From contig JAGVBB010000003.1 of assembly GCA_020059915.1 (NCBI GenBank), positions 233,625 to 297,624 on the forward strand: DNA of 64,000 bases. Reading direction: 5' to 3'. This DNA comes from Minisyncoccota bacterium (GTDB lineage Bacteria; Patescibacteriota; Minisyncoccia; UBA6257; GWB1-50-10). A program made the translations under genes and the position numbers. The notes beneath the pieces were generated by a model. It searched no databases. It had not been told where the DNA came from and saw only the letters and a list, made by a program, of their open reading frames with translations. Position 1 is the stretch's first letter. Each line of letters opens with the position of its first letter. This document shows, in pieces, positions 13,433 through 63,830 of the stretch.

Positions 13433-13435
13433 TTA

Positions 13436-13470
13436 ACCCCGCTAGTCTATGGATTAGCGGGGATTTTTAT
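13436..13470 (+). terminator. terminator hairpin CCCCGCTAGTCTATGGATTAGCGGGG plus T-run (bidirectional)
   Basis: Lies between convergent tdk and patatin genes. Confidence 0.7.
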
Positions 13471-16924: not shown

Positions 16925-17045
16925 AATAATAAATAGATAAGTTAGTATATGTACACAGAAACTTCCCCAGTTCCAAAGATACTAGGGATGTACAAGACAA
17001 GAATACAGGCAAACAAATTCATTAGCAAGTTTGTATATAAATAGC

Positions 17046-17085
17046 ACCCCACCAGTCTATAGACTGGTGGGGTTACGGATTGCGC
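17046..17085 (-). terminator. terminator hairpin CCCCACCAGTCTATAGACTGGTGGGG
   Basis: Same AGTCTATRGACT-core hairpin family as at 459, 13437 and 63797; 3' of the 17097 gene region. Confidence 0.5.
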
Positions 17086-32328: not shown

Positions 32329-32450
32329 TAAAATTCTAATTTCTAAGCCCTAAATTCTAAATAATATCAAAACTCAAATATTCAAATGACTTTTGATAAT
32401 TCTTATTTTGGATTTGTTTAGGGTTTCTATATTAGTGCTTAGGGTTTTTA
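32329..32450. repeat. diverged copy of the palindromic repeat family (lacks the GC-rich core hairpin)
   Basis: ccctaaattctaaataatatcaaaactcaaatatt ... ggatttgtttagggttt ... attagtgcttagggttt aligns with elements at 51921, 52674 and 54303. The tail supplies the stop codon of 32432..32968. Confidence 0.55.
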
Positions 32451-34290: not shown

Positions 34291-34300
34291 ATTTTAATAA

Positions 34301-34410
34301 ATTCTAATTTCTAAATCCCAAATTCTAAATAATATCAAAACTCAAATATTTAAATTAACTTCTTCAATTCGTGTTTTTTAGGATTTCGATATTAGTGCTT
34401 AGAGTTTATT
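34301..34410. repeat. diverged copy of the palindromic repeat family (lacks the GC-rich core hairpin)
   Basis: Very similar to the copy at 32329-32450. The tail gtttatttaa supplies the stop of the CsaA-like gene. Confidence 0.55.
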
Positions 34411-34750
34411 TAATTTTCCATCCTCCTCCAATTGATTTATCCGGTTGTAAAATTGAGATGGTACCTTCATTATCAGTTGCGGCAACAATCATTCCATTGC
34501 TTATCTCTCCCATGAGTGAACGTGGTTCAAGATTTGCAACGATAACAATATCTTTCCCAATGAGTGTTTCTGGTTCGTATTGTTTTCCAATCCCCGCAAG
34601 AACAATCCGCGAGACCGGTTCTCCTGCTTCATTTTTGTCTCCCACATCCAATGTTAAGCGAAGTAGTTTTTCTGAATCCAAAACACGTTCAGCCTGCAAT
34701 ACGTGAGCCGTTTTTAATTCAACTTTGGAAAAATCATCATACCCGATCAT
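34406..34750 (-). CDS. tRNA-binding domain protein (CsaA / Trbp111 / MetRS C-terminal domain-like)
   Basis: VELKTAHVLQAERV...KLLRLTLDVGDKNE...RIVLAGI...EPETLIGKDIVIVANLEPRSLMGEISNGMIV is the OB-fold tRNA-binding signature. The ORF track start at 34870 is probably too long; start M41 is likely. Confidence 0.75.
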   Translation of the reverse strand: MIGYDDFSKVELKTAHVLQAERVLDSEKLLRLTLDVGDKNEAGEPVSRIVLAGIGKQYEPETLIGKDIVIVANLEPRSLMGEISNGMIVAATDNEGTISILQPDKSIGGGWKIK

Positions 34751-39047: not shown

Positions 39048-39050
39048 AGT

Positions 39051-42713: not shown

Positions 42714-42723
42714 AGTTTTTATA

Positions 42724-45700
42724 TTATCTTGTACATGTAATGTTGACCGCATAGTCAGTTGAGTTCTGATTATTACACTCGCTCAAATATCCAGAAGGAG
42801 GTGTTGGTGCAGCAGCACATTGTGTTGGCTGGGAACCAAAACTCCAATTTCCTGATTGTCCATCATACAATGTTACATTTGAAGAGGTACTCCAAGCACA
42901 ATCAATTGCTGTTCCAGAACCAATCGCATATCCATTTGGTTGTGAACCCCAAACACCATTTCCAATACTATGATATGCGGCATAAGAGACGCCGGAATTT
43001 GCTACTGTACATGAAGAATACCCAAGCTGTTGTCTGATCTGCGTCAATACATTGGAATCCCACTCACTATTCATCATACGAGCAATAAGTTTGTGTTGTG
43101 GATTTGACCAACTCGCAAGACGCGTGAATTGTGCATCCACACAAATTTCCTGGTCTCCATTATCAGTGACGCTACTACAATATATTCCATACTCACAAGG
43201 ATTTGATCCATATAAGAGTGGTGGAATTGAATTATATCCTTGCTTGAACAAAGTCAACGCAGGCGCTGCGGGTATTGCACCAAATTCTGCCGTCTGTGTA
43301 CTTTCTCCAAATCCGTTAATCGCAGAAATTTTATAATAGTATGTTGTACCATTGGTGACTCCTGTATCTAAATAATAATTTCCTGTTGATGTTGCATAAA
43401 GTGAAAAACCACTTCCCGACGTTAAGCTTCTAAAAATTTTGAAATAGCTTGGAATTGCTGTACAACTAATACCTCTACTCCATGAAAGAGCAACACTATT
43501 ATTTCCTGCGGTTGATGTTGCGGAAGATGGTACAGCTGGAGCCTGAGAAACTGCACTCGTACATTTTGTAACAACAACCTGTCCCGCACCCGATCTATTC
43601 CCCGCAATATTTGATTGATTTATTCCATCATTATATGATCCACCGCCACCTCCACCATATGTACTTCCCCAACTTCCACCTGCTCCACCACCAGAATATC
43701 CTCCTCCTCCACCGGCAGTAAGTCCACCTGCTCCACCACCGCCAAATCCACCAACATTGCCACCCCATCCGGACCATACGCTTGCTCCATTATCTCCACC
43801 ATATCCTCCATTTAAGAATTTTGAACCACCATAGTCATACCACGCAGAACTTCCACCTCCATCAACATTAGTAGTTCCATCTGTTCTCCATCCCGCTCCT
43901 CCTCCAGAATAATTTGCACGACCGCCACCCATTCCATTTGTTCCTCCAGCACCCCCACCAGATGATTGCCCAGCAGTTCCATTAATAGTTGTCTGTCCAC
44001 CACTTGCTGACCCACCCCCATTTGTACCAGGCGCGCCCCCACCACCACCGGCAACAATAATCGGCAAATTATTTGAATCAACTACAAAGGTTCCCCCTCC
44101 CCCTCCATTTCCTCCATTATATTGGACACCATTGTTTGCCGGGCTACCTTGTTGTCCAACAAGTATTGAAATTACCTCACCCATTCTTAAATACACATCG
44201 CCCTGCATTTTTGCTCCAAAACCACCCGTGTAACTCATTGAACCCCCCTGTGCTCCATACGCAGCTATTGTATAAACCCCAGTTTCAGGAACAGTCCATT
44301 TCTGTGTTCCTGTTGCAACATCAAAAAATGATGAGTTCTCATCCCAGGAAGTTGAGTATGCAGAACGACATGCAGATATCGTTGGACCAGTTCTTCCAGT
44401 TTGTGAACAATTAGTAAATGTATGTGTAGTAAATGAATATAAAACATTCGGTGTCGTGACACTAAATTCATTTGAGGTAGATCCTTCTCCGGCTATATTC
44501 GTACCGGAAACCTTATAATAGTAAGTGGTATTTTGTGTTGTTGTCGCGTCGGTAAAAGTAGTCGCTTCAACTCCTGAGGCAATAAGGGAATACCCACTCC
44601 CTGAGGTAAGGCTTCTATATATATTATAAGTATCTGTTGCAGTACATTCAGTTGCACTTGGTGCTGTCCACGAAAGAGCAACTGAAATACCAGAAAGGCT
44701 TCCCGTAAGTGAGGTTGGTGTTAGTGGTAAAGAAAAACTTGAGCAGGCAACATAACAGGCACGCTCTGTATTTCCATTCACATTTGCTGTTGTACCCGCA
44801 CTTGAAAGTCCTGCGGGACAAGAAATTGATTGGTTTGATCCCTTCTTTTGCACTGTAATTGTTTGGATTGGTCCGCCTTGCTTATAACAAACACGTTCTC
44901 CATAATCGCCAAGTGATCCAGAAACAGTGTTACATGATCCAGCCGTCCATCCAGTTGGACACGACTGACAAGTTGCGGCAGGAATTTTATAACACGCACT
45001 ACTGTACGCTGCTTGACCTGAACCGCGGTAGGTGTAATACGAAGAATTCCCCTGCCATTTTGTATATCCGGATGGACAAGCAACAGCATCGGATCCCGAT
45101 GTGGAAAAATATGGAAATGCATCTGCTGCTGTTGCTGAAGAGTTTACGCAGTATCCATTATATGATTGATATGAACTACTATAGGTATAATATTTTGCAT
45201 ATGTTGTGTCATACCAATTTGTGTATCCAGATGGACAGGTCACAGTAGTTGGTGCGTATCCAGTATAAATCTCCCATGGAAGAGAGGATGGTGATCCCTT
45301 GTAGCAAACTCCAGTGTAATAAGTGACCGACCCTGGACCATATGCATAATTTGTTGGGTACCATTTTGTATATCCAGATGGACAGGTCACTGATGCTGGC
45401 GAGGTAGATTTCCATTTGAATACATCCGTGCTTGCAGATGCGTTATAGCACGACCCCGTATAGTTATAATAACCACCCGTTGATGAATACCATTGTGCAT
45501 TTGCATGATACCAAGCGGTATATCCACTTGGACAAGAAATAAAGGTGGTTGGATCTCCACTTCCCGTGTATGTCTCCCACGTAAACGATGATGGTGACCC
45601 CTTGTAGCAAGCACCATTATACCCATTATAAGTAGAATATATTCCCTTTCCTGGATATGATGCATTTGTCCAAGTAGTGTATCCAGATGGACAGGTCACT

Positions 45701-46923
45701 GATGCCGGAGATGAGTATGCTTTCCAAGTGAAGACATCGTCTATTAAGGAGTTTTGATAACAAGTACCAAAATAAGAAGGGTTTCCACTTTCGTCTCCAT
45801 ACCAGTAGGCGTTACCGTGTGACCACAATGAGTACCCCGTAGGACAGGTAAAATAAGTTGAGATAGCACTTGTACGACTTTCAAAAGCAAATGTTTTGGG
45901 ATCTCCGATTGACGAATGTAAAGTTAAAATGGCACTTCCTGGTTTTGAACCACTGGTACCTGGAAGAACTTGCCACGTTCCGACGCCACTTGCATCCGTA
46001 GTAAGAGCATAACCCGCCGTTGTTGAAGTTCCAATTTGAATTCCTGTTGCGCGAACTTTTCCAACTACCTCAAGTTTTGTTGTTGGGTTAGTAATACCAA
46101 TTCCGACGTTCCCAGAGTTCCCAGAGTATAAAGATGTTGATGTTGCGGTCCACACAGAACCGACCAACGAATCAACATATCCTTTTGTCGCAGCGTTATT
46201 TGCAGCAGTTGGTGTTCCTACAGAAAGTGTAGAAAAACTTCCCGTGCCGGCCACATCAAGCAACGACGATGGCGTTGTTGTACCAATCCCAATATTTCCA
46301 GAGTTTGCCATCGTCATCCGATACTGTAGATTGTTCCTATTATAAAATTGGAGCCCACTTGCTGTCGTCCCAAAATTCCAAGAAGCATCAGACCCAATTA
46401 AGTTTAATGTTCCCGCCGTACTTCCACTTTGGAAATAGGTAACAATATTGCCAGATGGTGCAGAATTATATACATCAAATTTTATTGTTGGACTTATCCC
46501 TATACCAACCGCACCACCATTATTGATAATTAAAGAAGATGCAACCCATCCAGATCCATTATTATGCAATGTCTGGTTTGCACTTCCCGATCCAACACCT
46601 CCACCGAGAATGGAATCAACATATCCTTTTGTGGCAGCATTGCTCGCAGCAGTTGGAGATCCCGCACCAGTGCTTGTGGAAAAAACAGCACTCCCAACCA
46701 CGTGTAACGGATATGTTGGTACAAGGGTTCCAATCCCTATATATCCATTTCCACGAGAAATAAACAAATCACCGTTTCCGATGTTTATGTTATATCCACT
46801 CGTCTTATTGAATCCAAGTCCCGATGCATCACTTTGAATATCGGTGTCGCCAAAAAAAATACTTGCACTTACTACCAATGGAAGTAGACATAAACCTATG
46901 GTTAGTATGAGAAAGCGTTTCAT
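42724..46923 (-). CDS. giant secreted modular surface protein 3 (tail-fibre-like repeats, two-Cys tandem repeats, Fn3, ALK/LTK-type glycine-rich domain, second Fn3, Cys-rich C-terminal domain)
   Basis: Signal peptide MKRFLILTIGLCLLPLVVSAS. Same module order as protein 1, plus an extra C-terminal ~190-aa domain with 8 Cys. First gene of a four-gene minus-strand operon. Confidence 0.8.
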   Translation of the reverse strand: MKRFLILTIGLCLLPLVVSASIFFGDTDIQSDASGLGFNKTSGYNINIGNGDLFISRGNGYIGIGTLVPTYPLHVVGSAVFSTSTGAGSPTAASNAATKGYVDSILGGGVGSGSANQTLHNNGSGWVASSLIINNGGAVGIGISPTIKFDVYNSAPSGNIVTYFQSGSTAGTLNLIGSDASWNFGTTASGLQFYNRNNLQYRMTMANSGNIGIGTTTPSSLLDVAGTGSFSTLSVGTPTAANNAATKGYVDSLVGSVWTATSTSLYSGNSGNVGIGITNPTTKLEVVGKVRATGIQIGTSTTAGYALTTDASGVGTWQVLPGTSGSKPGSAILTLHSSIGDPKTFAFESRTSAISTYFTCPTGYSLWSHGNAYWYGDESGNPSYFGTCYQNSLIDDVFTWKAYSSPASVTCPSGYTTWTNASYPGKGIYSTYNGYNGACYKGSPSSFTWETYTGSGDPTTFISCPSGYTAWYHANAQWYSSTGGYYNYTGSCYNASASTDVFKWKSTSPASVTCPSGYTKWYPTNYAYGPGSVTYYTGVCYKGSPSSLPWEIYTGYAPTTVTCPSGYTNWYDTTYAKYYTYSSSYQSYNGYCVNSSATAADAFPYFSTSGSDAVACPSGYTKWQGNSSYYTYRGSGQAAYSSACYKIPAATCQSCPTGWTAGSCNTVSGSLGDYGERVCYKQGGPIQTITVQKKGSNQSISCPAGLSSAGTTANVNGNTERACYVACSSFSLPLTPTSLTGSLSGISVALSWTAPSATECTATDTYNIYRSLTSGSGYSLIASGVEATTFTDATTTQNTTYYYKVSGTNIAGEGSTSNEFSVTTPNVLYSFTTHTFTNCSQTGRTGPTISACRSAYSTSWDENSSFFDVATGTQKWTVPETGVYTIAAYGAQGGSMSYTGGFGAKMQGDVYLRMGEVISILVGQQGSPANNGVQYNGGNGGGGGTFVVDSNNLPIIVAGGGGGAPGTNGGGSASGGQTTINGTAGQSSGGGAGGTNGMGGGRANYSGGGAGWRTDGTTNVDGGGSSAWYDYGGSKFLNGGYGGDNGASVWSGWGGNVGGFGGGGAGGLTAGGGGGYSGGGAGGSWGSTYGGGGGGSYNDGINQSNIAGNRSGAGQVVVTKCTSAVSQAPAVPSSATSTAGNNSVALSWSRGISCTAIPSYFKIFRSLTSGSGFSLYATSTGNYYLDTGVTNGTTYYYKISAINGFGESTQTAEFGAIPAAPALTLFKQGYNSIPPLLYGSNPCEYGIYCSSVTDNGDQEICVDAQFTRLASWSNPQHKLIARMMNSEWDSNVLTQIRQQLGYSSCTVANSGVSYAAYHSIGNGVWGSQPNGYAIGSGTAIDCAWSTSSNVTLYDGQSGNWSFGSQPTQCAAAPTPPSGYLSECNNQNSTDYAVNITCTR
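44820..45900 (-). repeat. intragenic tandem array encoding two-Cys repeats
   Basis: Repeated tgtatatccagatggacaggtcac-type words. Confidence 0.7.
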
Positions 46924-50647: not shown

Positions 50648-51889
50648 TTATTTATTATTTTTGTAATATGTATCCAGATTCAAACCCTCCCAATCGCTAC
50701 TTGAATAATTAGTCCAATCTTTTGCATCAAATCGTGGAGCAGTTAGACGATAACTTATTTCTAATTTTGAATTTTGAATTTCTAATTTTGAATTAGGAAT
50801 ACCGAATATCACAATCTTTTTGTTTTGTTCGTCTTTTTGATACCATACTTTGCCATCAAAGTTTGGAGTAAGAAGCACAGACACATGCTTCAATCCATTT
50901 TTTTCTACATCAATAGTATGTGCAAATAACCACACATCACTTCCTTTTTCTTTATTGTTTAAATCAATAGTATATGAATATAAATTCCCATTCAAAGTTG
51001 CAACAAGTGTAGCAACGTCACTGAGCTCTTCTTTCACACCACCAACCATTCCAGGGTTGTATGTTGCATATCGCTTCCCTTCTATGGTGTAAACTGGATC
51101 AAATGTCACCCCATCAATCTTGTTTGCAATAATATCTGCCGCCGCTGTTCCCTCATCTGCATAGATTTGTCCAGCAACTTGAAGTTTATATGTTGGATTC
51201 GTTATACCAATACCTACCCTTCCAGAACTATCTACATTTAAACGCCATGCACCAGTATGCCAAAAGCCAAATGCAGAGGTCCCAGTGTTATCTAAGGATC
51301 CTATAAACCTGTCTCCACTCCCGGAAGAGTCTGTAATCCAAATTCCAGCACTTCCATTAGAACCCTGTCTTATTCTAATTCTATCTGCAATATCTAATTT
51401 ATATCCAGGAGTTACTCCAATACCAACACTTCCATCTCCCGCAAAAACAACTGGATATGATGTATTCCCAAACATTCTAACTCCATTCCCTCCAGCAAAT
51501 TGCATTTCAATAAAACCATCGGTTCTGTTTATTTGGCTGGCATTCATGGTAAAGGCGCCACCGGCACCAACCTGAAGAACACCCGCAATAGTCGTGGTTC
51601 CTACAACATATAATGGTGAAGTTGGATTTGTTGTTCCAATACCAACATAGGTTGCCGCTTGTGGATAAATCTTTGTACTTGTTGCAGTCCATCCCCCACC
51701 CCCAATCGCTGATGCGCTATCAAGCGTTGAGCTGTCTGGAAATCGAATAACTTTTCCTGGCGAAAGAATAATATCTTTATCAATAGTAAGTGAGTTCTGT
51801 GCATATACAACGGCAACACCACTCAAGATCACGACACCCAAAAATAAGAGCGCTCCCGAAAACAATTTTTTGCGCAAAAAATGTTTCAT
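50648..51889 (-). CDS. secreted tail-fibre-like repeat protein with a C-terminal domain shared with 55488..59504
   Basis: Likely start MKHFLRKKLF (signal peptide); the ORF track start 51913 uses GTG. Contains VGIGTTNPTSPLYVVG, VGIGVTPGYKLDI and VGIGITNPTYKLQVAG repeats. C-terminal DPVYTIEGKRYATYNPGMVGGVKEE...EKGSDVWLF matches the C-terminus of the 1338-aa protein. Confidence 0.7.
   Translation of the reverse strand: MKHFLRKKLFSGALLFLGVVILSGVAVVYAQNSLTIDKDIILSPGKVIRFPDSSTLDSASAIGGGGWTATSTKIYPQAATYVGIGTTNPTSPLYVVGTTTIAGVLQVGAGGAFTMNASQINRTDGFIEMQFAGGNGVRMFGNTSYPVVFAGDGSVGIGVTPGYKLDIADRIRIRQGSNGSAGIWITDSSGSGDRFIGSLDNTGTSAFGFWHTGAWRLNVDSSGRVGIGITNPTYKLQVAGQIYADEGTAAADIIANKIDGVTFDPVYTIEGKRYATYNPGMVGGVKEELSDVATLVATLNGNLYSYTIDLNNKEKGSDVWLFAHTIDVEKNGLKHVSVLLTPNFDGKVWYQKDEQNKKIVIFGIPNSKLEIQNSKLEISYRLTAPRFDAKDWTNYSSSDWEGLNLDTYYKNNK
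50758..50799. repeat. 21-nt tandem duplication inside the CDS (encodes NSKLEIQ NSKLEIS) with similarity to repeat-element flanks
   Basis: tttctaattttgaatt ttgaa tttctaattttgaatt. Confidence 0.5.
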
Positions 51890-51920
51890 ATCTATAGAAT
51901 TAGTATAACACACTGCAATA

Positions 51921-52080
51921 AACTCTAATATCTAAAAACTAAATCCTAAACAAACCTGTCTGCCGATAGGTAGATTCAAATGACCAAAACTCAAAATATT
52001 TAGAACATTTGGATTTTGATATTGTTTAGAGCTTAGCCTGCCTGTCCGGTAGGCAGGAATTAGTGCTTAGAGTTTAATAA
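51921..52080. repeat. palindromic IVS-like repeat element, copy 1 (upstream of 50648..51889)
   Basis: aaactctaatatctaaa...caaaactcaaaatatttagaacatttggattttgatattgtttagagcttag CCTGCCTGTCCGGTAGGCAGG aattagtgcttagagtttaataaaa; the core hairpin is at 52037-52057. Confidence 0.8.
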
Positions 52081-52081
52081 A

Positions 52082-52100
52082 AAAGCCCTTTTGGGCTTTT
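52082..52100 (-). terminator. terminator GCCC-AAAA-GGGC plus U-run for the 52101..52658 gene
   Basis: Hairpin at 52085-52096 abuts the stop codon. Confidence 0.7.
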
Positions 52101-52658
52101 TTATTCTACTATCATCTTCCCCACCTCTCCCCTTCCTGGATGTCCAGGAACATCACAATGATATGCATACGTTCCTTTTTTCGTCGGTGCGTTGAACGTA
52201 ATGAGTCTCGCAGGATCACCAGGACCAACACCAACCGCTACTGCAGAAAGTGATGGATCATCAAACATAAATAAGTGAGTTCCACTATCTCCCGCAGAAA
52301 CAAGTAAGTGCGTCACTGCTCCCGCCTTTACTGTAAATTGTGAGGGGGTGATTCCTGTTGCTGAAATTTTTATATCTATCGCTTCTGAAGGAACAGATGC
52401 CTTGTCTGTTATAGGAAGTGATTCTTGTGGTGCCTCTGGTGACATTGGCGCAACATCGTTTCGTGCTGCCTTTCCTTCTGGTGTTACCACAACACCCTCA
52501 ACACTCACCGCACTCGCACCAGGTGCTGCAACATTACTCGGTTTGTATGTCTGCTCTTGTTGCGTTGGCTCGCTGAAACTTCCCGTGATCGCAAGCGCTA
52601 CCACAATGGCAATAACAACAACCGCAAATATAATCCAAATAATTGTTTTCTTTTCCAT
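52101..52658 (-). CDS. membrane-anchored cupredoxin-like (type-1 copper) protein
   Basis: N-terminal TM, Pro/Ser/Glu-rich linker, then a C-terminal beta-sandwich with His (GTHLFMF), YHCDVPGH and GKM, i.e. an H-C-H-M ligand set. Confidence 0.7.
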   Translation of the reverse strand: MEKKTIIWIIFAVVVIAIVVALAITGSFSEPTQQEQTYKPSNVAAPGASAVSVEGVVVTPEGKAARNDVAPMSPEAPQESLPITDKASVPSEAIDIKISATGITPSQFTVKAGAVTHLLVSAGDSGTHLFMFDDPSLSAVAVGVGPGDPARLITFNAPTKKGTYAYHCDVPGHPGRGEVGKMIVE

Positions 52659-52673
52659 AAGTTAATTATAACA

Positions 52674-52818
52674 AAAACTCTAATATCTAAACCCTAAATT
52701 CTAAACAAATTTAAATGACCAAAACTCAAAATATTTAGAACATTTGGATTTTGATATTGTTTAGAGCTTAGACCTGCCTGTCCGGTAGGTAGGAATTCGT
52801 GCTTAGAGTTTAATAAAA
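52674..52818. repeat. palindromic IVS-like repeat element, copy 2 (upstream of 52101..52658)
   Basis: Nearly identical to copy 1. The core at 52773-52793 has one substitution that keeps pairing only as G-U on the plus-strand transcript. Confidence 0.8.
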
Positions 52819-52839: not shown

Positions 52840-54273
52840 TTATCGTTTCATTTTAAAGTCCAATCTCATTGATTTAAGGAACAATGAATACATCGGATTG
52901 GAATCTGGAGTATATTCCATCTTCCAGAATATTCGATTTGCTTCTTGATTCTTGAATGTTATTTCTTCCCCCACATTCACGCGTTGCCAATTGGTGCCAT
53001 CATTAGAAAGGAAAATAGATATATTTCCCGATTTTGTATAATCCGCAAATGTAACTGTTCCTTTTTGAACGGGAAGAATATTGTTGCTGATGTTTGCAGA
53101 GGCAACGGTGTACGATTTTGAATTATCAAATCCATAGTCATAAAAATTCCACGCCTCAACCCCAGTGTCGGCATCTGCATTGCAACGAAGCGCTCTATTT
53201 TCCACAACCCCGTCGCAAACCAATCTGCGAACGTTGCCCAACGAATTCAACGAGCTCATCAAGTTGACTGCCCCCTCAATTGAATTTGTCCCATTCTGAA
53301 ACAATTTTATGAACTTTATTTTCCCCGCTCCCTTGTTCCACACATACCACATTGCATCGTTCCCAAATCCAACTTTTGATATACCGGGGACAAACCCGCC
53401 ATCCATGAACCGCGTATTGAATATATTGGGAATTTCTACGGCACTCCCATCATTCAAAAACTGAAAAGCACGACCCTCATATCCCCCATACACCAACAAC
53501 CACCCACCATCATTTCCCCCAATACCAATCGTCCCAATATATTTTGAATCAAATAATTCTCCACTTCCTTTTATGTTTTTAAAATTGGAACCATCAAATG
53601 CATATACATAGGACTTAAAGATTCCATCTTCCTTGATAACCACCCCAACACGCCACCCTGAATCCAATGCAGAAACGGAAACGGTCATCAATGTTTTTGA
53701 TCTCACCTCTTCAGGGAGTTGTACCTCACTTGATCCTCGATATAGTCCCAACCCTTTTGCTACATAGCATTCTTTTTGTATGCACGCCTCTTCCGCAGAT
53801 ATTTGTTTGAATGCATCTGCTCGTCGCCACTCGTATTTTGGAGGGAGTGTGAACACACTCACTTCTCGATCGTGCCACAAGGTTGTCTGCACCTGATCTA
53901 CCCAGCCAAGCCCAGAAAAGAAGTCATGGAATGTTTGGTAGCTATATTCATCAGAAACTGCTTGCGGACCAAGTCCTGGAATATCAAGTTGGATCAGTGA
54001 TTTGGAAAGTTCTTTCTGTCTCATTTTCGACAATGTCTCTGTGGAGGACGCAATAATTGTCTTTTGTCCCGCAGTTGTCTGATCACCTTTCTGCACACTT
54101 ATAATTGCATTATCAACAATCTTTCTTTCAAGGAAGTTACGAACCGCTGTTGCTGCCAAAAAAAGAAATGTAAAAAAACCGATTGCAGCAATCATCACGC
54201 TGAAAGCGATTCCCAATCCTTCAAATACCTTCTTCCCCTCTTTTGTTATTTTCTTGAACGGCTCATGCTTCAT
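52840..54273 (-). CDS. membrane-anchored extracellular protein, unknown function
   Basis: 477 aa with an N-terminal TM; no family I recognise. Confidence 0.55.
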   Translation of the reverse strand: MKHEPFKKITKEGKKVFEGLGIAFSVMIAAIGFFTFLFLAATAVRNFLERKIVDNAIISVQKGDQTTAGQKTIIASSTETLSKMRQKELSKSLIQLDIPGLGPQAVSDEYSYQTFHDFFSGLGWVDQVQTTLWHDREVSVFTLPPKYEWRRADAFKQISAEEACIQKECYVAKGLGLYRGSSEVQLPEEVRSKTLMTVSVSALDSGWRVGVVIKEDGIFKSYVYAFDGSNFKNIKGSGELFDSKYIGTIGIGGNDGGWLLVYGGYEGRAFQFLNDGSAVEIPNIFNTRFMDGGFVPGISKVGFGNDAMWYVWNKGAGKIKFIKLFQNGTNSIEGAVNLMSSLNSLGNVRRLVCDGVVENRALRCNADADTGVEAWNFYDYGFDNSKSYTVASANISNNILPVQKGTVTFADYTKSGNISIFLSNDGTNWQRVNVGEEITFKNQEANRIFWKMEYTPDSNPMYSLFLKSMRLDFKMKR

Positions 54274-54302
54274 TTCTTTAATTGTAACAAAAACAATTAA
54301 AG

Positions 54303-54448
54303 AAACTCTAATATCTAAACTTTAAATTCTAAACAAATTCAAATAACCAAAACTCAAAATATTTGAAACATTTGGATTTTGATATTGTTTAGGATTTAGA
54401 CCTGCCTGTCCGGTAGGCAGGAATTAGTGCTTAGAGTTTAATAAAAAA
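54303..54448. repeat. palindromic IVS-like repeat element, copy 3 (upstream of 52840..54273)
   Basis: Same architecture as copies 1 and 2; core hairpin at 54401-54421. Confidence 0.8.
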
Positions 54449-54469: not shown

Positions 54470-54976
54470 TTATTTGACTATCATCTTCCCCACCTCTCCG
54501 TTATCTTCATGTCCTGGCAAATCACATCTGAATATATATTCTCCAGCTTTGTCTGGTGCTATGAAATTCACCGCACTTGTCTGTCCCGGCCCCGCGTTCA
54601 ATGCTACCGAACCAAGTGATGGATCTTTAAATGCAAATGTGTGTGATTTGTCTGTTGAGGTTATTGCAAGCGTTACCGTCTGTCCCCTGCTTACAGTAAA
54701 TTCACTCGGAGAAAATCCAGATGGGGAAATAGAAAGTTCAATGGTCCCTTCAGGAAGTTTTTCCCGAGCAACAGTGCTTGCCTGCGGAACCTCTGCATTG
54801 TTTGGAACGGGCGCACTCACCACGCCAGGGAGTGACTCCTCCGTATTTGTCACCGTCTCAACAATTTTCTTTGCAGAATCCGCCCCTCCGTTTGAAAACG
54901 CAAGAATAATGATTCCTAGTGCGACCACCACCCCCACAATAATCCAAATATATAATCTCTTTTTATGCTCTTCCAT
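54470..54976 (-). CDS. membrane-anchored cupredoxin-like (type-1 copper) protein, paralog of 52101..52658
   Basis: C-terminal HTFAFKD ... YIFRCDLPGHEDNGEVGKMIVK (H-C-H-M). The likely start MEEHKK is at 54976; the ORF track start 55066 overlaps the upstream gene. Confidence 0.7.
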   Translation of the reverse strand: MEEHKKRLYIWIIVGVVVALGIIILAFSNGGADSAKKIVETVTNTEESLPGVVSAPVPNNAEVPQASTVAREKLPEGTIELSISPSGFSPSEFTVSRGQTVTLAITSTDKSHTFAFKDPSLGSVALNAGPGQTSAVNFIAPDKAGEYIFRCDLPGHEDNGEVGKMIVK

Positions 54977-54991
54977 AATATCATTATACAC

Positions 54992-55480
54992 AAACTCTAA
55001 ATTCGAAAACCTAAACCCTAAACAAATTCTAATATCAAAAAAGATAAAACTATTTTGACTTCTCAATAATAGAACCGAATATCTTCATTAACTCTGTCGC
55101 CTCTTGTTTTAGTTCTTTTTGTTTCTCTTCGTCGTTTTGATTCACAAGAATAAGTGATAACCAATAAACACTTTCTTTTGCTTCTTTTCTACAAATTTTA
55201 ACTCTCATAACAAAATCTTTTTTACTTAGAGATTCGTTGGCTTCAATATAGTTAGCACCAACAGAACCCGCCGAACGAGCAAGCTGTTTTCCATATTCAA
55301 TAGTGGTGACCGATTTTGGAGCTTTATTTATTAAATCACGCACGTTTCGTGCAAAGATAAGCGTTCTCTCTTCAAGATCATATCCACCTTTTCTATTTTG
55401 AAATTCAACCATTTGAATTTTGAGATTGTTTAGAGTTTAGGCCTGCCTGTCCGGTAGGCAGGAATTAGTGCTTAGGGTTT
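54992..55480. mobile_element. copy 4 of the palindromic element, split into left (54992-55043) and right (55413-55480) halves by the embedded four-helix-bundle ORF
   Basis: The left half aaactctaaattcgaaaacctaaaccctaaacaaattctaatatcaaaa and right half ttgaattttgagattgtttagagtttagg CCTGCCTGTCCGGTAGGCAGG aattagtgcttagggttt together reconstitute copies 1-3, with the 363-nt ORF in place of the central loop. Confidence 0.7.
55050..55412 (-). CDS. four-helix-bundle protein (23S rRNA intervening-sequence protein family; same fold family as DGR Avd)
   Basis: 120 aa containing GSVGANYIEANESLSKKDFVMRVKICRKEAKESVYWLSL, characteristic of TIGR02436/PF05635. Confidence 0.75.
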   Translation of the reverse strand: MVEFQNRKGGYDLEERTLIFARNVRDLINKAPKSVTTIEYGKQLARSAGSVGANYIEANESLSKKDFVMRVKICRKEAKESVYWLSLILVNQNDEEKQKELKQEATELMKIFGSIIEKSK

Positions 55481-55487
55481 ACAGTTT

Positions 55488-58400
55488 TTATTTCTCCTTG
55501 AGAATAAACGATGGAGTTTCCTTTTGATCTTTGCTATATGTTGGCCACTCCTTCCAGTCATGGCGGTTACCAATAAGGCGATACGAAAATTCTGTCGGTT
55601 CATCTGCAAAGAATTTAATTGTTTTTCCGCTAATTATGTATCCCACACCAACCGTCGTCCCATACGGAGTTGTAATCGCTTGTACATTATCTTTTCCAAA
55701 ATCAACCGCCTGATACCAAAGCCACAAGTCGGAACCTCGTTCAATATTTGAGAAATCAATGACATATTGATACTCAGTTCCTCCAAATCCTAATTTCGAA
55801 CCTTGCCTACCGCCTGCCTGTCCGGTAGGCAGGGCAGACAGGTTTTGAATTTCTAAACAATTTTCTAAATCAGAATTCTCTAAACTATTTTGAGTTTTGA
55901 TATTTGAATTTTGGCATTGTTTAGAGTTTAGGGTTTCAGATTTAGAGTTTTGAAGAGTGAGTTGGCCTCGTCCAACGAACTCTTCTTTCACTCCTCCCGC
56001 AATTGAGGATGTATATGTTGCATATTTCTTTCCATCAATTTCATACAACGGGTCGATGGTCTGCACGGTAATTTTTCCAATAGAACCAATGTTTCCTCCA
56101 CTCAAAGTTATACTACTTGACGCATTCATCGTAAGATTTCCATTGATCGTCACCTGATTGTTAAACCATGATGTTCCTGATACATACAATCGATGAGTTC
56201 CTGGGTTTGTTGTGCCGACTGCAAGCTGTCCATTCATATAATTGATTCCCGTTCCATCAGATTGCACAGCACCAGCAAATTTTAATGATGTTCCCGTATT
56301 TGCAGGATCAATATAATAGGTGGGGTCGTTGTAGTCATAGTACTTGGTTGCACTGAGTGTATCAGTGAGTTGTCCCTGTCCAATAACATCAAGTTTGAGT
56401 GACGGACCTGCTCCACCAATGATTACTTTTCCTGTAGTGGCTGCAAGGGTTGAAGTACCCGATACATACATGGTGGCAAAGGATGCGGTTGAGGTTCCAC
56501 TTCCACCACTACCGAGAACAGAATCTACATATCCTTTTGTAGCAGCATGACCAGAATCACCTGGTGAACCAACAAAGATTGGATTTTCAAATTTAGCCGT
56601 TCCATTCACGTGAAGTAGATATGCGGGAGTGGTGGTACCGATACCGACATAACCACTTTCTCTAATGGACATTCTTTCTACTAAAGCTCCATCAACTATA
56701 GGATTTCTAACAAAAAACCCTAATCTTTGTTTATTGGTTATAGCATTGTTGTCTTCAATATTTATCCTTTTTATACCAACTGCATCAAAAAGATTAGTTG
56801 TAGCATTATAATAACCCCTAAATATAAGACCGCCATTTTCTCCACCAGTTGCATTTCGTTCTGAAAGATATATCTTTGCGGCATCGGCAGTTGCAGACGA
56901 AATTTCAAGTAACGATCCTGGATTTGTTGTTCCAATACCAACATTGCCATCCCCACTTATACTCATCGCATTCACCCAACTAAATGTCGATCCAGCAGTA
57001 CCGGTTGGTGCAACTTTGAAATCCATTGATCCAGCCGCATCTGAGTTCCAACCAATTCTCCCCGCACCACTAGCCAGAATGCGCTGCCACGCACCACCAC
57101 TATTAAAGAACGCATTGTTAACAATATAAGAATCTGCGGCAGAATCTCTTTGCATAATGTTAACAGGACCAAACATATTAAATTGATATCCTGCGTTTAC
57201 CGTTGAATAACCAGTTGAACCAACATGAAAACGTCCTTGTGGAGAAGCGTTCCCAATACCAGCGCGACCACTTGGAGTAACAGTAAATACCTCTCCACCG
57301 CCCGTTGAAGAATATGCGCGGATTAACAATGCTCCCGCATCACTTGAATAATTTTCTATATTTACAAGTTTTTGAGTTCCCACAGCTGTATTTTTTACTC
57401 TTAATAATTCATTTGTTGATGTGTCATATACTTCAAGTTTTGCGGCGGGGCTGGTTGCCCCAATACCAACCCTTCCATTGCCACCAGATGCGGAGAGAAA
57501 TGCAAAATTATTATTTGAATAAAAATTAGTAATAGCACTTGTTTGATCAATAGCAAATTGTCCAGTTCCATCTCCTATTGTAAAATCATTACCAGCATAG
57601 TTTGCTAGTGCTCCTATTTGTAATTTATTTGCGGGTGCCGTTGTCCCAATACCTACCCTCTCATTCGTCGCGTCAACTTTCAACACATTATTCGTACTTG
57701 CCGCTGCTTCAAATGTATAATTTCCTTTTCCTGCAGTGTATCCAAAGGTTCCTGCAGAGACATTACTTGCCCCCACATTTGTTGTCATTGTTCCCCCCGT
57801 TGTTATATTTCCCGAAACATACGCATTCCCCTGCACATGTAACGCCTGTGTCGGCGTTGATGTTCCAATCGCAACCCAATCGGTTGTGGTGGTGAGTGTC
57901 ACATAGGTCCCCGTTCGCGACCACCCCACAGAATTTCCCCCACCCCCCGCAGTTAACTGGATTGATCCATCAGGAAACTTGAACCCTCCTGTTGTTGACT
58001 CAACCACCCCCGCAACAGAAAGTTTTTGCGCTGGATTTGTAATACCTATCCCAACACTTCCATTAAAATATGATTTTGCAGAGCCAGTTGAATATACCGA
58101 ATAAAAATTATTTCCTCCATTATTTACATTAAGTTCAATACCAGAATTTGCTCCCGTTCCCGTTGATGTATTGGAAACCTTAATGCCAGATGTCTGCCAT
58201 GTTGGAGCACCACTTATATTGATATCAATTCCATAATTAATAACATCAGTTTGTGCATTTGTGGTAATTGCCAATTTTTGATTTGGATTTGTTATTCCAA
58301 TACCAACATTGCCCGTTGGGCTTATTGTCATTCTTTCTACTGGAATATCGTTTCCACTACCCGTTATACCAGTTCCTGATTTTGTAGCAAAAACAAGATA

Positions 58401-59504
58401 ATCCCGTTCGCTTCCAGCAGTATCATTTAATCTTGTACCAATCCATGCTTGTGGTGATCCATTGAATGTCGTTCCACCTTGATAATTTAATAAATGGTTG
58501 AATGCAATGCCTGAATAATAAGATCCGACTGTTGTGGACCTATCATGTAACGGGCCTAATTGTATGTTATATACATTTGAATTTATTGATATGTTTCCAG
58601 TACTCGGTCCCTCAATATGTGCACTTCCATTATATAAATGTAACTTTGCGCTTGGACTAGTTGTCCCAATGCCAACCTTTCCACCAGCCGGGTTTAATAA
58701 AAGTCCGTATTGAGTAGCGGATTGTAAGGTTGTATAACCAGTAGAACCATTATAAAGTTCAAGTGTTGCGTTGTAAGAATTTCCATTTGTCCCCCAACCA
58801 TTCCCTTGTCCAATTTTTCCACCATTCGATAACGCGATATCTCCAAAAACCTCCAATTTTTTACTTGGACTCATCACCCCAATTCCAACATTTCCCGCAA
58901 CATACAATCCGTTTGTTGGTAGCCTCGCAATTGAGGAGGTTCCCACACCAAGTGCGCTTGGAAATGCATAGTTCGTTGATTGGAACGCTCCCCCTGTGAT
59001 ACTCGACGGAGAGAGTTGCCCAACAAACGCCGCCTCGGTTTGTATACTTCCCCCAACATGCAAAGTTGAACTTGCTATCCCCACAGGACCAATACCAATG
59101 TTTCCATTTGGTTCAACAAAAAAACGTAATGCACCAGCAGAAAGTGCTGTTTCATCCCATAACGCCAACCGTCCATTTGGACGAGAATACCACACATATG
59201 TGTGTCCCCCCGTGGTAAGGTTCTTAAGTGCAATACCAGGATCAGATGTTGAAGCAACAGTAAATATTTTTCCAAAGCGCGCATTTGTCGGATCTCCCGT
59301 TGGTGTTGCCAAACTAGTTCCAAAACCAATGTTTCCACTCGCATCAAGCTGTAACACACCACCCCCCTGTCCCGCAGGAAGTGCCGGACCAGTGAACGCA
59401 AAAACAAAACCACCAGCAAACAAACTTGAAGCAAGTGTAAAAACTGTTATTCCAATAATTATGCGTGAGTACTTCAAAATAGTAGTGTAAAGTTCAAACT
59501 TCAA
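55488..59504 (-). CDS. giant secreted tail-fibre-like repeat protein (1338 aa) with an in-frame repeat-element insertion in its C-terminal domain
   Basis: Signal peptide and at least 20 repeats of the G.VGIGTT.P..KL.V type (NVGIGVMSPSKKLEVFG, KVGIGTTSPSAKLHLYNG, RVGIGATSPAAKLEVYD ...). The C-terminal domain is homologous to that of 50648..51889 but interrupted by 55 aa encoded by the repeat element. Confidence 0.75.
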   Translation of the reverse strand: MKFELYTTILKYSRIIIGITVFTLASSLFAGGFVFAFTGPALPAGQGGGVLQLDASGNIGFGTSLATPTGDPTNARFGKIFTVASTSDPGIALKNLTTGGHTYVWYSRPNGRLALWDETALSAGALRFFVEPNGNIGIGPVGIASSTLHVGGSIQTEAAFVGQLSPSSITGGAFQSTNYAFPSALGVGTSSIARLPTNGLYVAGNVGIGVMSPSKKLEVFGDIALSNGGKIGQGNGWGTNGNSYNATLELYNGSTGYTTLQSATQYGLLLNPAGGKVGIGTTSPSAKLHLYNGSAHIEGPSTGNISINSNVYNIQLGPLHDRSTTVGSYYSGIAFNHLLNYQGGTTFNGSPQAWIGTRLNDTAGSERDYLVFATKSGTGITGSGNDIPVERMTISPTGNVGIGITNPNQKLAITTNAQTDVINYGIDINISGAPTWQTSGIKVSNTSTGTGANSGIELNVNNGGNNFYSVYSTGSAKSYFNGSVGIGITNPAQKLSVAGVVESTTGGFKFPDGSIQLTAGGGGNSVGWSRTGTYVTLTTTTDWVAIGTSTPTQALHVQGNAYVSGNITTGGTMTTNVGASNVSAGTFGYTAGKGNYTFEAAASTNNVLKVDATNERVGIGTTAPANKLQIGALANYAGNDFTIGDGTGQFAIDQTSAITNFYSNNNFAFLSASGGNGRVGIGATSPAAKLEVYDTSTNELLRVKNTAVGTQKLVNIENYSSDAGALLIRAYSSTGGGEVFTVTPSGRAGIGNASPQGRFHVGSTGYSTVNAGYQFNMFGPVNIMQRDSAADSYIVNNAFFNSGGAWQRILASGAGRIGWNSDAAGSMDFKVAPTGTAGSTFSWVNAMSISGDGNVGIGTTNPGSLLEISSATADAAKIYLSERNATGGENGGLIFRGYYNATTNLFDAVGIKRINIEDNNAITNKQRLGFFVRNPIVDGALVERMSIRESGYVGIGTTTPAYLLHVNGTAKFENPIFVGSPGDSGHAATKGYVDSVLGSGGSGTSTASFATMYVSGTSTLAATTGKVIIGGAGPSLKLDVIGQGQLTDTLSATKYYDYNDPTYYIDPANTGTSLKFAGAVQSDGTGINYMNGQLAVGTTNPGTHRLYVSGTSWFNNQVTINGNLTMNASSSITLSGGNIGSIGKITVQTIDPLYEIDGKKYATYTSSIAGGVKEEFVGRGQLTLQNSKSETLNSKQCQNSNIKTQNSLENSDLENCLEIQNLSALPTGQAGGRQGSKLGFGGTEYQYVIDFSNIERGSDLWLWYQAVDFGKDNVQAITTPYGTTVGVGYIISGKTIKFFADEPTEFSYRLIGNRHDWKEWPTYSKDQKETPSFILKEK
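55788..55952. repeat. palindromic IVS-like repeat element, copy 5, inserted in-frame within the 55488..59504 CDS
   Basis: Core CCTGCCTGTCCGGTAGGCAGG at 55812-55832 plus the long palindrome. The 165-nt insertion encodes QNSKSETLNSKQCQNSNIKTQNSLENSDLENCLEIQNLSALPTGQAGGRQGSKLGF between conserved domain residues. Confidence 0.75.
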
Positions 59505-59606
59505 AGTGCAAAATTGTATCTAAAAACCTTTAAACCTTTTAATTTCAGCTTTGCGTTTTGAGATTTGCTCTTTGATTTTTTTTACTAGACTCCTCCTTAT
59601 TTCATT

Positions 59607-59705: not shown

Positions 59706-60299
59706 CTATTTTTGATTCACAATAAGCGTTCCCGTCACCTCTTTCCCACAAATATCTTTACAATAGAATCCATATTTTCCAAACGGATATCCTTGGAATT
59801 GAATCTTCATTGATGTCCCCTTCTCAATGGTTCGGTACACCCCAAAATCAGGGAAGAACACATTGTATTTGGCATCCACTGCAGTGAAGTTGATGTCAAT
59901 CACATCTCCCTCATTCACCACCAAGGTTGATGGAACATATTTCCCTCCCTCACCCTTCATTTCAAATTGTCTGAATGCACTTGGTCCAGTTTCCAAAACA
60001 TTTGTTGGTACTGCAACATCTGTTGGTGTTGATGACGCGCCAACCTCAGGTGTCTTTATGGTTTCATCAACAACAATACGAGTCCCCCCCTCAACGGTGG
60101 GAAGTGCATTCTCCTGTTCTGGACGAAACGTGTCGGTCCCTGGAGTATTCACTCCTGATGTGGTTGTCGTACTGATTGAAACCTCTGGCATCGTGCTCTT
60201 CTTTCCAAACCATCCCTGACTCGAACCTATTGAAAGAATAGCGACAAGCACCACAACAACCGCGACCCCGATGATAACTTTTGTTTGTTTTTGATCCAT
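59706..60299 (-). CDS. membrane-anchored cupredoxin-fold paralog with degenerate metal site (CKDICG, no His/Met ligands)
   Basis: Same architecture as 52101 and 54470 (TM, Pro/Thr-rich linker, beta-sandwich), but the site reads ...YNVFF...FYCKDICGKEVTGTLIV. Confidence 0.6.
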   Translation of the reverse strand: MDQKQTKVIIGVAVVVVLVAILSIGSSQGWFGKKSTMPEVSISTTTTSGVNTPGTDTFRPEQENALPTVEGGTRIVVDETIKTPEVGASSTPTDVAVPTNVLETGPSAFRQFEMKGEGGKYVPSTLVVNEGDVIDINFTAVDAKYNVFFPDFGVYRTIEKGTSMKIQFQGYPFGKYGFYCKDICGKEVTGTLIVNQK

Positions 60300-60406
60300 G
60301 GCTCTTATATATAGTATAACACGTTAGAATTACAAAATTTCGAATTTCAAGTTTCAAATTAAGGACCCAATTCTCCCATTTGAAATTTGTAAATTATAAA
60401 TTGAAA

Positions 60407-60931
60407 TTACCTTGGTAGTACAATAAACTTCCCGCTTATCTTTTCCCCATTGGGACATTTGTCACGACATTCAAACAAGAACGTTCCCACAGTATCAGGA
60501 ATGAACGTTATCTGTTTTGTTTCTCCTTGTCCGACAAGCGCATAGGTTCCGTATTGCGGAATTGAAAAATCATACTCTCCATCAACTCCCGTTACTTTTA
60601 CTTTCACAAAATCATCTTTTTTTACCGTAAGATTGGTTTCCGAAAATCCATTTTTTGAGATTTGTATCTCATAGACTCCAAATGAACTATTTGATCCGCC
60701 AACAGCATATGTTACTTCTGGTTTTGTTGGTGTGGCATTTTCCGGAACGTCTGGAACAAATTCAACGCGTTGTGTTCCTGTTGCAGAAACATCGTTTGGA
60801 ACTTTTTCATTTTGTATCGGTTCATTGGTTACTTCCTTTTGTTGTGTCACCCCAAAAATTACCACCACAATCACAAATACAACTAATGCTCCAAGAATCA
60901 ACCATTGTTTTTTTGTCATCTGCATTTCCAT
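60407..60931 (-). CDS. membrane-anchored cupredoxin-fold paralog with degenerate metal site (CRDKCPNG)
   Basis: TM, linker, beta-sandwich ending FLFECRDKCPNGEKISGKFIVLPR. Confidence 0.6.
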   Translation of the reverse strand: MEMQMTKKQWLILGALVVFVIVVVIFGVTQQKEVTNEPIQNEKVPNDVSATGTQRVEFVPDVPENATPTKPEVTYAVGGSNSSFGVYEIQISKNGFSETNLTVKKDDFVKVKVTGVDGEYDFSIPQYGTYALVGQGETKQITFIPDTVGTFLFECRDKCPNGEKISGKFIVLPR

Positions 60932-63790: not shown

Positions 63791-63830
63791 AAAAAATCCG
63801 CCAGTTCATAGACTGGCGGATTTTTTATTT
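63791..63830. terminator. bidirectional terminator hairpin TCCGCCAG-TTCATAGA-CTGGCGGA with flanking A/T runs
   Basis: Lies between convergent PHP (+) and TrkA-like (-) genes; same hairpin family as at 459, 13437 and 17050. Confidence 0.7.

Follow-up and report, generated by a model that had tools for sequence, protein, structure and literature searches.

Introduction

Rickettsia palindromic elements (RPEs) of the RPE-1 type, which Ogata et al. are said to have described in 2000, are reportedly repeats of ~100–150 nt that are scattered in the genome and in some cases lie in frame and free of stops within protein genes. Such copies are translated into additional segments that typically lie at the protein surface and leave the fold intact, and to our knowledge the in-frame carriage of palindromic repeats by proteins is textbook matter only for Rickettsia. 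A second described system, the 23S rRNA intervening sequences (IVSs) of Leptospira, Coxiella and others, consists of a PF05635 open reading frame (ORF) between inverted repeats that form a long stem. Here we describe a 64,000-nt stretch of a Minisyncoccota bacterium (contig JAGVBB010000003.1, positions 233,625 to 297,624; hereafter the window), in which a 165-nt copy of a palindromic repeat lies in frame within the gene of a 1338-aa surface protein. The segment is a copy of a repeat that looks selfish; it probably lies in a permissive surface loop of the C-terminal domain and is translated there as part of the protein. A literature search returned nothing on palindromic in-frame elements of the candidate phyla radiation.

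Results

A palindromic repeat copy interrupts the C-terminal domain of a surface protein

The host gene, its paralogue and the insert are laid out as follows.

55488..59504, minus strand: ORF of the 1338-aa surface protein, with repeated GIGT..P..KL motifs; its TTG start is uncertain.
Roughly 55488-56080, minus strand: beta-rich C-terminal domain of this protein, which hosts the insert.
55788..55952, minus strand: in-gene copy of the palindromic repeat, 165 nt or 55 codons, with the translation QNSKSETLNSKQCQNSNIKTQNSLENSDLENCLEIQNLSALPTGQAGGRQGSKLGF.
50648..51889 (51913 is also given as the upper end), minus strand: ORF of a 413-aa paralogue that shares the C-terminal domain but lacks an insert at the corresponding point (site 1).
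50757..50800, minus strand: heptamer array at the second variable loop of the paralogue, six AATTCAA/AATTAGA-type units, with the translation NSKLEIQNSKLEI.

A first-pass annotation of this DNA had claimed that the two C-terminal domains align and that a 165-nt in-frame element copy interrupts that of the larger protein, and both claims were borne out. BLASTP aligned the domains at E 1e-15, leaving a single large gap of ~54 residues between GGVKEE..L and Y.YVIDF (Y.Y.ID) of the 1338-aa protein. Deleting the 55 insert residues and no others (QNSKSE...GSKLGF) improved the alignment with the paralogue to E 8e-25, and the domain deleted in this way was colinear with the insert-free homologue P0002 (61% identity over 137 aa, 2-aa gap, E 1e-61).

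At the DNA level, we built an element profile from three complete intergenic copies in the window (51917-52082, 52670-52817 and 54298-54445; model length 151). An nhmmer search with this profile gave a minus-strand match to the in-gene segment from 55950 to 55808 (E 2.4e-13) that covers model positions 8-131 of 151 and has arm, centre, arm and hairpin in the same succession as the element. The position of the hairpin and the profile score show this copy to be inverted with respect to the intergenic ones.

This match bears directly on another reading, namely that the segment is a native low-complexity linker whose resemblance to the intergenic repeats comes from shared AT-rich composition only. 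Such a linker would look much as the insert does, which is N/S/K/Q-rich, and close relatives also have long site-1 loops. Composition would not, however, be expected to yield a match over 124 of 151 model positions in the element's own part order, nor an exact 21-nt hairpin common to the insert and the intergenic copies. Together with the absence of any such linker from most family members, and with a related locus (L120) whose insert is a sharply AT-rich island resembling that locus's own intergenic arms, these observations largely refute the linker reading, which we regard as extremely improbable.

Least probable of all the readings considered is an assembly artefact, in which a misjoin induced by repeats, the classic points of misassembly, made a chimeric ORF. 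The two flanks of the insert together make up a single domain in the correct order and frame, the in-gene copy is only 76–77% identical to the other copies in the window and so offers no identical repeat to collapse on, and the independent assemblies L120 and L123 carry inserts at the same point.

The element family in the window

The following intergenic relatives of the in-gene copy are found in the window.

51917..52082, plus strand: intergenic copy A, with an extra 20-nt GC hairpin variant, CCTGTCTGCCGATAGGTAGA, at 51955-51974 in the left arm.
52670..52817, plus strand: intergenic copy B, between the terminator of gene 52840..54273 and the −10 box of gene 52101..52658.
54298..54445, plus strand: intergenic copy C, directly after the terminator 54463->54450.
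32331..32449, strand not assigned: hairpin-less, more distant relative, intergenic, found as a profile match.
34297..34411, strand not assigned: a second hairpin-less, more distant relative, intergenic, likewise a profile match.

The repeat, ~148 nt long, combines a GC hairpin with a pair of inverted arms that are built of degenerate 7-nt units. Read on the plus strand, an intergenic copy runs from a left arm (AAACTCTAATATCTAAACCCTAAATTCTAAACAA...) through the centre (AAATGACCAAAACTCAAAATATTTAGAACATTTGG) to a right arm (...TTTGATATTGTTTAGAGCTTAGA) and the GC hairpin, followed by AATTCGTGCTTAGAGTTTA; the 20-nt hairpin variant of copy A is absent from copies B and C. The arms pair over most of the element, and as gene-strand RNA the intergenic copies fold into a long, imperfectly paired stem from which the GC hairpin branches off (fold z scores of −3.2 and −4.7). 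Identity among the intergenic copies is 92%, compared with 76–77% over ~145 nt between them and the in-gene copy once the nested unit described below is excluded.

The intergenic copies directly follow the terminator of one gene, and their other end abuts a TGnTATAAT-like −10 box that lies 6 nt ahead of the ATG of the next. We also observed that the genes after the copies (52656-52680, 54971-54995 and 51887-51915) have an extended −10 box, TGnTATAAT or TGnTATACT, 6-12 nt before the ATG, and no Shine-Dalgarno sequence. This layout suggests that these genes have leaderless or near-leaderless mRNAs, with the −35 region falling inside the element.

No target-site duplication is visible at the in-gene or intergenic copies, and no gene for a transposase, REP-associated tyrosine transposase (RAYT; REP, repetitive extragenic palindromic) or reverse transcriptase was found among the scanned proteins of the window. 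At gathering score, Rfam gave no match across the whole window, and no tRNA or transfer-messenger RNA was found in it. The sole Rfam match to the insert at E up to 5 was NrrF, which at 26.9 bits against a threshold of 60 was treated as spurious.

The insert contains a nested 21-nt hairpin

The GC-rich part of the in-gene copy holds two hairpins, one inside the other.

55813..55833, plus strand: pristine 21-nt GC hairpin, an exact match to CCTGCCTGTCCGGTAGGCAGG; the mRNA strand reads LPTGQAG.
55801..55842, minus strand: the element's own hairpin in decayed form, CCTGTCTGC^CGGTAGGCAAGG, which the nested 21-mer divides into 55834-55842 and 55801-55812.
52037-52057, 52773-52793, 54401-54421, 55442-55462 and 55813-55833: copies of CCTGCCTGTCCGGTAGGCAGG in the window, five in number against 0 expected from shuffles.

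On the coding strand this part reads CCTGTCTGC (CCTGCCTACCGGACAGGCAGG) CGGTAGGCAAGG, where the bracketed 21-mer is pristine, has the opposite orientation and sits within the outer loop. The decayed outer halves align at the hairpin position of the intergenic copies, and an allele without the nested 21-mer would read AACCTGTCTGCCGGTAGGCAAGG. The first-pass annotation had described a complete element copy with its core hairpin at 55812-55832. The copy is indeed near full length and the exact hairpin is present; the coordinates were one base off, and the 165 nt are better described as 144 nt of element (48 codons) plus a 21-nt nested unit (7 codons, LPTGQAG).

Since its identity to the intergenic copies is 76–77% whereas these are 92% identical among themselves, the in-gene copy is the oldest or fastest-evolving member of the family, and the nested hairpin within it looks recent. 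Judged by its distribution, the GC hairpin is a separate add-on to the PF05635 palindromes treated below, because a CCTGCC..GGCAGG hairpin occurs at just 1 of 80 PF05635 loci.

The insert is open in the coding frame and predicted to form a disordered loop

In the coding frame the in-gene copy has 0 stops, as had been claimed from the letters with a correct translation, compared with 6-7 stops in the homologous frame of the intergenic copies. Stops close all six frames of every one of the five intergenic copies (0 of 30 open); at this base composition, a stop-free 55-codon frame has a probability of ~2%. The element part and the nested part are each a multiple of three, and the corresponding inserts in the independent assemblies L120 and L123 are open too, inside called genes. 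The contrast between a coding frame purged of stops and intergenic copies without any open frame argues for translation of the insert; the pattern fits selection on a translated segment and would be unexpected for one removed from the RNA. Predicted tryptic peptides of the insert are SETLNSK, QCQNSNIK and TQNSLENSDLENCLEIQNLSALPTGQAGGR.

As RNA, too, the in-gene segment folds well (−55.4 kcal/mol, z −4.3), forming a long stem from which a GC hairpin branches off; this would be in keeping with a role at that level: an RNase III-type processing site that regulates, is cleaved or is excised, and is not translated. That the element family includes a PF05635 gene between inverted arms, which is the layout of rRNA intervening sequences, points the same way. 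Yet an untranslated segment has no reason to lose all 6-7 in-frame stops, nor to have an insert and a nested hairpin whose lengths are both multiples of three, and the L120 and L123 inserts are open as well. The hairpin is not followed by a T-run and hence is no intrinsic terminator, and we know of no mRNA re-ligation pathway of this kind in bacteria. Because the stops have been purged from the in-gene copy, we consider an RNA-processing role very unlikely.

Consistent with a translated segment in a permissive loop, an AlphaFold2 (AF2) model, made from a 25-sequence alignment and with a mean predicted local distance difference test (pLDDT) score of 72.8, places roughly residues 85-140 at pLDDT <50, without structure, between flanking strands at 72-80 and 144-149, with the domain core at about 85-96. 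The insert is thus modelled as a disordered loop between two confident beta-strands. The C-terminal domain itself had no match at E <=0.001 in a Foldseek search against the PDB and no model in Pfam or NCBIfam.

Two loops of the domain family are recurrent insertion sites

We aligned 155 family representatives to the domain profile and measured three loops. The domain is very common at the C-terminus of large proteins. The site-1 loop has 16-18 residues in 90 of the 155 and at least 26 in about 30, reaching up to 74; a second loop before SYRL (site 2) has 8 residues in 117 and at least 13 in 33. The control loop, by comparison, is near-constant (16 residues in 133 of 155). Homologues without the insertion, P0001-P0003 among them, therefore exist, and with 90 of 155 representatives at basal site-1 length the segment is not a conserved linker shared by all orthologues.

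Long loops are N/S/K/Q/I-rich and heptad-like, and at several loci the repeats behind them can be recognized. At site 1, locus L121 carries five AATTAGA units and L122 carries units of the AATTTCG type; at site 2, the units are AGTCATC in L121 and ACAACCT in L122. That unlike repeats occupy the same two points indicates independent insertion events. In L120, a GC-richer relative with the same gene order (surface-protein gene, then PF05635 gene), site 1 holds an AT-rich element copy of 105 nt that has no hairpin and looks like the intergenic arms of L120 itself. Site 1 of L123 holds a roughly 140-nt diverged element copy; the intergenic space downstream, 93 nt long, is without a PF05635 gene, and no element arms were seen in it by inspection. 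Within the window, the 21-nt tandem duplication that had been noted in the paralogue is real (50757-50800, period 21, 2.1 copies, 91% matches) and is also readable as 4.6 copies of a 7-nt unit.

All nine closest representatives (66-77% core identity) have site-1 inserts of 32-74 aa that differ in sequence, and the next-closest representatives (65-66% core identity) have none. From these alignments, the site-1 loop has been occupied for long, or repeatedly, in this subfamily, with fast turnover: an old recurrent hotspot and not a conserved linker. More widely, sites 1 and 2 are recurrent insertion sites, with unrelated heptamer-derived inserts at each in roughly one fifth of the 155 representatives. 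The insert in the window is no one-off recent hop, given its divergence (76-77% as against 92%) and the related inserts at the same point in L120 and L123.

The concentration of insertions in two loops may reflect tolerance alone or selection for surface variability. Taken to its full extent, the second option holds that the site-1 and site-2 loops are adaptively maintained as a hypervariable or contingency region of a surface, possibly receptor-binding, domain, in which slippage and exchange with genomic copies would rapidly alter loop length and sequence; 21-nt steps would keep the frame, and 7-nt steps would switch off the C-terminal half-domain. The hosts are large surface proteins in a variable gene cluster, both loops vary strongly over the 155 representatives while the control loop is constant in length, the inserts of the nine closest relatives differ in length as well as sequence, and perfect or near-perfect in-frame heptamer arrays occur in L121, L122 and the paralogue, all as this account would predict. 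The same pattern is nevertheless expected if only these loops tolerate insertions, and the arrays in the window insert are degenerate (68-77% matches) and hence poor substrates for slippage. We regard adaptive maintenance as unlikely, while noting that it overlaps with the passenger-repeat reading and does not exclude it.

PF05635 genes generally lie between inverted arms of 7-nt periodicity

Directly downstream of the 1338-aa surface-protein gene lies a version of the element that bears a gene.

54987..55481, minus strand: gene-bearing element, with one arm at 55404-55481 that includes a GC hairpin and the other at 54987-55041.
55050..55412, within the gene-bearing element: gene for a 120-aa four-helix bundle of PF05635/TIGR02436, the 23S rRNA intervening-sequence protein family.
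L120 704-1182, L114 620-1130, L087 4290-4800 and L124-L203: further PF05635 loci, in general with inverted arms.

The same arrangement recurs elsewhere with other heptamers: the PF05635 gene of L120 sits between AATCCTA-type arms, and at two Bacteroidota loci the arms are GAATTAC and TGTTGAA repeats. Across the 66 metagenomic PF05635 loci with enough flank, flanking inverted repeats (z >4 against shuffles) were present at 53, and the strongest autocorrelation lag was 7 nt in 50 of 66 downstream flanks and in 32 upstream flanks. The heptamer sequence varies from genome to genome and the 7-nt period stays constant. On this comparison, PF05635 genes appear to be generally enclosed by inverted arms of ~7-nt periodicity, and the short copies in the window look like gene-less derivatives of the larger palindrome that encloses such a gene.

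The 21-nt hairpin recurs across phyla

An exact-match scan of one genome per species for CCTGCCTGTCCGGTAGGCAGG returned at least 119 loci (L001-L119) at which the 21 bases are identical and the flanks unrelated. The taxa among the matches listed include Bacteroidota (many families), several Patescibacteria classes, Nitrospirota, Dehalococcoidia, Elusimicrobia, Ignavibacteria and Proteobacteria. Among these same listed matches, the preceding base is G in 89 of 125 (71%) and a purine in 94%, no target duplication was seen, and no common neighbouring gene family was found at the hairpin loci. Stop-free frames of at least 60 codons on each side surround 45 of the 126 listed occurrences, about 30 of which read LPTGQAG; the 21-mer in the window is in this majority frame.

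Homologous oxidoreductase-like ORFs at L030 and L075, 50% identical, carry LPTGQAG at a different position in each. L030 shows a precise 7-residue alignment gap at the LPTGQAG copy of L075; the alignment ends just before the copy in L030, where by eye L075 has nothing. A Paceibacterota arginyl-tRNA synthetase (L013) also carries LPTGQAG. Nested 21-mers, in which one hairpin lies inside the loop of another, recur elsewhere. The 21-mer is further present in 15 IMG/VR stretches, and one putative viral contig, IMGVR_UViG_3300038551_000082 (L205, L207 2768-3774, L213), has six exact 21-mers, some of them nested, and in addition carries the variant CCTGTCTGCCGACAGGCAGG twice; this variant is similar to the decayed and the extra hairpin of the window (55801-55842 and 51955-51974).

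Two candidate rules for the 21-mer were rejected. A link to PF05635 genes failed, as such a gene occurs at 2 of 119 hairpin loci among the matches listed and is never adjacent to the hairpin. Nor does the 21-mer always mark the tip of a local palindrome; flank complementarity is at chance overall, though clear cases exist. A literature search gave no mention of the 21-mer sequence or of LPTGQAG.

We offer a broader reading tentatively, as a possibility that we ourselves doubt: the insert may be one product of a very widespread, undescribed layer of ultra-small DNA parasites of two kinds. One would be palindromes of genome-specific heptamers, often around a PF05635 gene, that land in rRNA, intergenic DNA and protein loops; the other would be the independent 21-nt hairpin unit CCTGCCTGTCCGGTAGGCAGG. 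As part of this reading, the 21-nt unit may insert with precision, adding exactly 21 nt without a target duplication, next to a preceding purine and in many cases within another hairpin's loop, and may survive in genes mainly in the LPTGQAG frame, even in an arginyl-tRNA synthetase. If true, a conserved trans-acting machinery or process would be writing the same 21 bases into genomes across the bacterial tree, and the hairpin, if confirmed as mobile, would rank with the smallest and most widespread mobile sequences known.

Other repeats and gene context in the window

Four small cupredoxin-like proteins with an N-terminal membrane anchor (52101-52658, 54470-54973, 59706-60299 and 60407-60931) alternate with giant surface proteins, and this pairing recurs in the related metagenomic loci L121, L122 and L123, which marks a conserved type of gene cluster. 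Further along the window, 35679-46923 holds three consecutive giant ORFs (1122, 1233 and 1399 aa) with common internal repeats, a paralogous surface-protein array. Their repeat families comprise ~150-nt Cys-containing modules and a GIGT..P motif, the latter also present in the 1338-aa protein.

Heptanucleotide arrays also occur outside the elements. AGTGCAA (4.1 copies, 59484-59512) lies at the 5' end of the 1338-aa ORF, with the assigned TTG start inside the array, and AAATTTC (3.7 copies, 60335-60360) lies at the 5' end of the upstream cupredoxin gene. In the C-terminal tail of UvrB (22689-22726), after the UVR motif, there is an in-frame degenerate TTTGTTG array of 5.4 copies, translated as ...TTNYKQQTTKKNK.... 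A second small repeat family consists of terminator-like hairpins, AAACCCGCTAGTCTATGGACTAGCGGGGTTTT, at 457-488, 13435-13466, 17045-17076 and 63794-63825, with stem and loop conserved and each at a gene end.

Discussion

The evidence taken together leads us to favour the passenger-repeat reading, and a plausible course of events can be sketched. An ancestral element copy or heptamer array would have entered the loop, and only in-frame, stop-free states would have survived selection. The insert would then have diverged, or exchanged sequence with genomic copies, while staying open, and later a separate 21-nt GC hairpin would have inserted into the loop of the element's own hairpin, adding 7 codons (LPTGQAG). 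At present the mRNA would be translated straight through, giving a 55-residue polar, disordered extension of an exposed loop that is tolerated and may incidentally diversify the surface. Since the present-day intergenic copies would have truncated the protein, the source copy would have been open, or the insert would have grown in place, by 21-nt steps or by exchange with genomic copies under selection. Hints that the element moves are the 92% identity among the intergenic copies, the gene-bearing copy downstream of the host gene and the L123 space that has neither a PF05635 gene nor, by inspection, element arms.

Several observations weigh against this account. The intergenic copies are closed in every frame, such that a simple hop of one of them would truncate the protein. 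With no target-site duplication at the copies and no transposase in the window, mobility is inferred only, and so too, from sequence, is the translation of the insert; the AF2 model, in turn, draws on only 25 sequences at a mean pLDDT of 72.8. Finally, all nine closest representatives carry site-1 inserts. This fits either inheritance with fast turnover or a hypervariable loop that is targeted or selected; the latter would not be expected of a repeat carried as a purely neutral passenger.

The same behaviour in a Patescibacteria-like genome would indicate a more general route by which selfish DNA adds protein sequence, with a different element architecture. The finding links PF05635 'intervening sequence' genes, heptanucleotide arrays and low-complexity inserts in candidate-phyla proteins, and would explain many of the unusual N/S/K/Q-rich stretches that hamper the annotation of these proteins and the prediction of their structure. 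It also marks out, in a very large and unannotated family of C-terminal domains, two loops at which insertions are naturally tolerated.

Among known systems, cyanobacteria offer the closest analogue of the nested 21-nt hairpin. Their short tandemly repeated repetitive sequences (STRRs), a term associated with Mazel (1990), are reportedly tandem heptanucleotide repeats, and their small dispersed repeats (SDRs), associated with Elhai (2008), are said to be hairpin-forming mobile units of 21-27 nt that can nest within one another; the SDRs are the analogue meant here. SDRs are reported as confined to Nostocaceae (PMC5861425), unlike the present 21-mer, which recurs unchanged in many phyla. In Geobacter metallireducens, tandem heptanucleotide repeats in groups of four or five, some of them in inverted pairs, form families that lie between and within genes and have been interpreted as regulatory sites (PMC2700814). 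The sequences of those elements differ from ours, and a PF05635 link, a reading frame and a location in a protein loop are absent from that account.

Contingency loci consist of simple sequence repeats, such as the 7-bp repeats at Haemophilus hmw (PMC12721329, PMC8262952). The present locus likewise ties short tandem repeats to surface-protein genes, with length change by slippage possible, but its repeats are degenerate, lie inside the loop of a folded domain and form part of a palindromic element.

Like miniature inverted-repeat transposable elements (MITEs) and REP doublets forming hairpins (REPINs) (PMC3116915), the element is short, non-coding, hairpin-forming, multi-copy and mostly intergenic, with gene-less forms derived from a longer element, and it has the terminal inverted repeats and small size by which MITEs are recognized. 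It differs from MITEs in lacking a target-site duplication and in that its longer form encodes only the PF05635 protein, with no transposase in the window. As for REPINs, no RAYT gene was seen among the scanned proteins of the 64-kb window, and the partner gene encodes a small four-helix bundle without known transposase activity. As a separate observation, at 7860-8011 of the related groundwater contig L122 a Y1 transposase (PF01797) gene is followed by REP-like palindromes of its own (gacgtcgtacgtc...); these have no sequence relation or linkage to the present elements. A diversity-generating retroelement, suggested by the Avd-like PF05635 gene, was rejected: no reverse transcriptase domain occurred in the scanned window proteins and no pair resembling a template and variable repeat in the repeat search.

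The rRNA intervening sequences are a further point of comparison. At 54987-55481 the window has a small four-helix-bundle ORF (PF05635/TIGR02436) enclosed by inverted repeats, as an IVS does. Unlike 23S IVSs, which sit in a helix tip of the rRNA and are excised by RNase III, the palindromes described here lie between protein genes, a gene-less copy lies inside a protein gene, and the window contains no rRNA; the heptamer periodicity of the arms is a feature of the present elements that is not known to us from the IVS literature.

In behaviour the in-gene copy resembles the RPEs, as the first-pass annotation had proposed, and the analogy is apt at that level: in four of five behavioural respects the two agree, as the segment belongs to a dispersed palindromic repeat family, lies in frame and stop-free in a gene, has homologues of its host without an insert and is predicted to occupy a loop, and the loss of stops indirectly supports the fifth, expression of the inserted peptide. 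The differences concern both host and architecture. The present host is Patescibacteria-like, the arms are built of 7-nt units, a gene-bearing form with PF05635 exists, a separate 21-nt hairpin is nested in the copy, and the same two loops of one domain family have been hit repeatedly by different repeats. By analogy, we would file the element as RPE-like by behaviour, not as an RPE by sequence.

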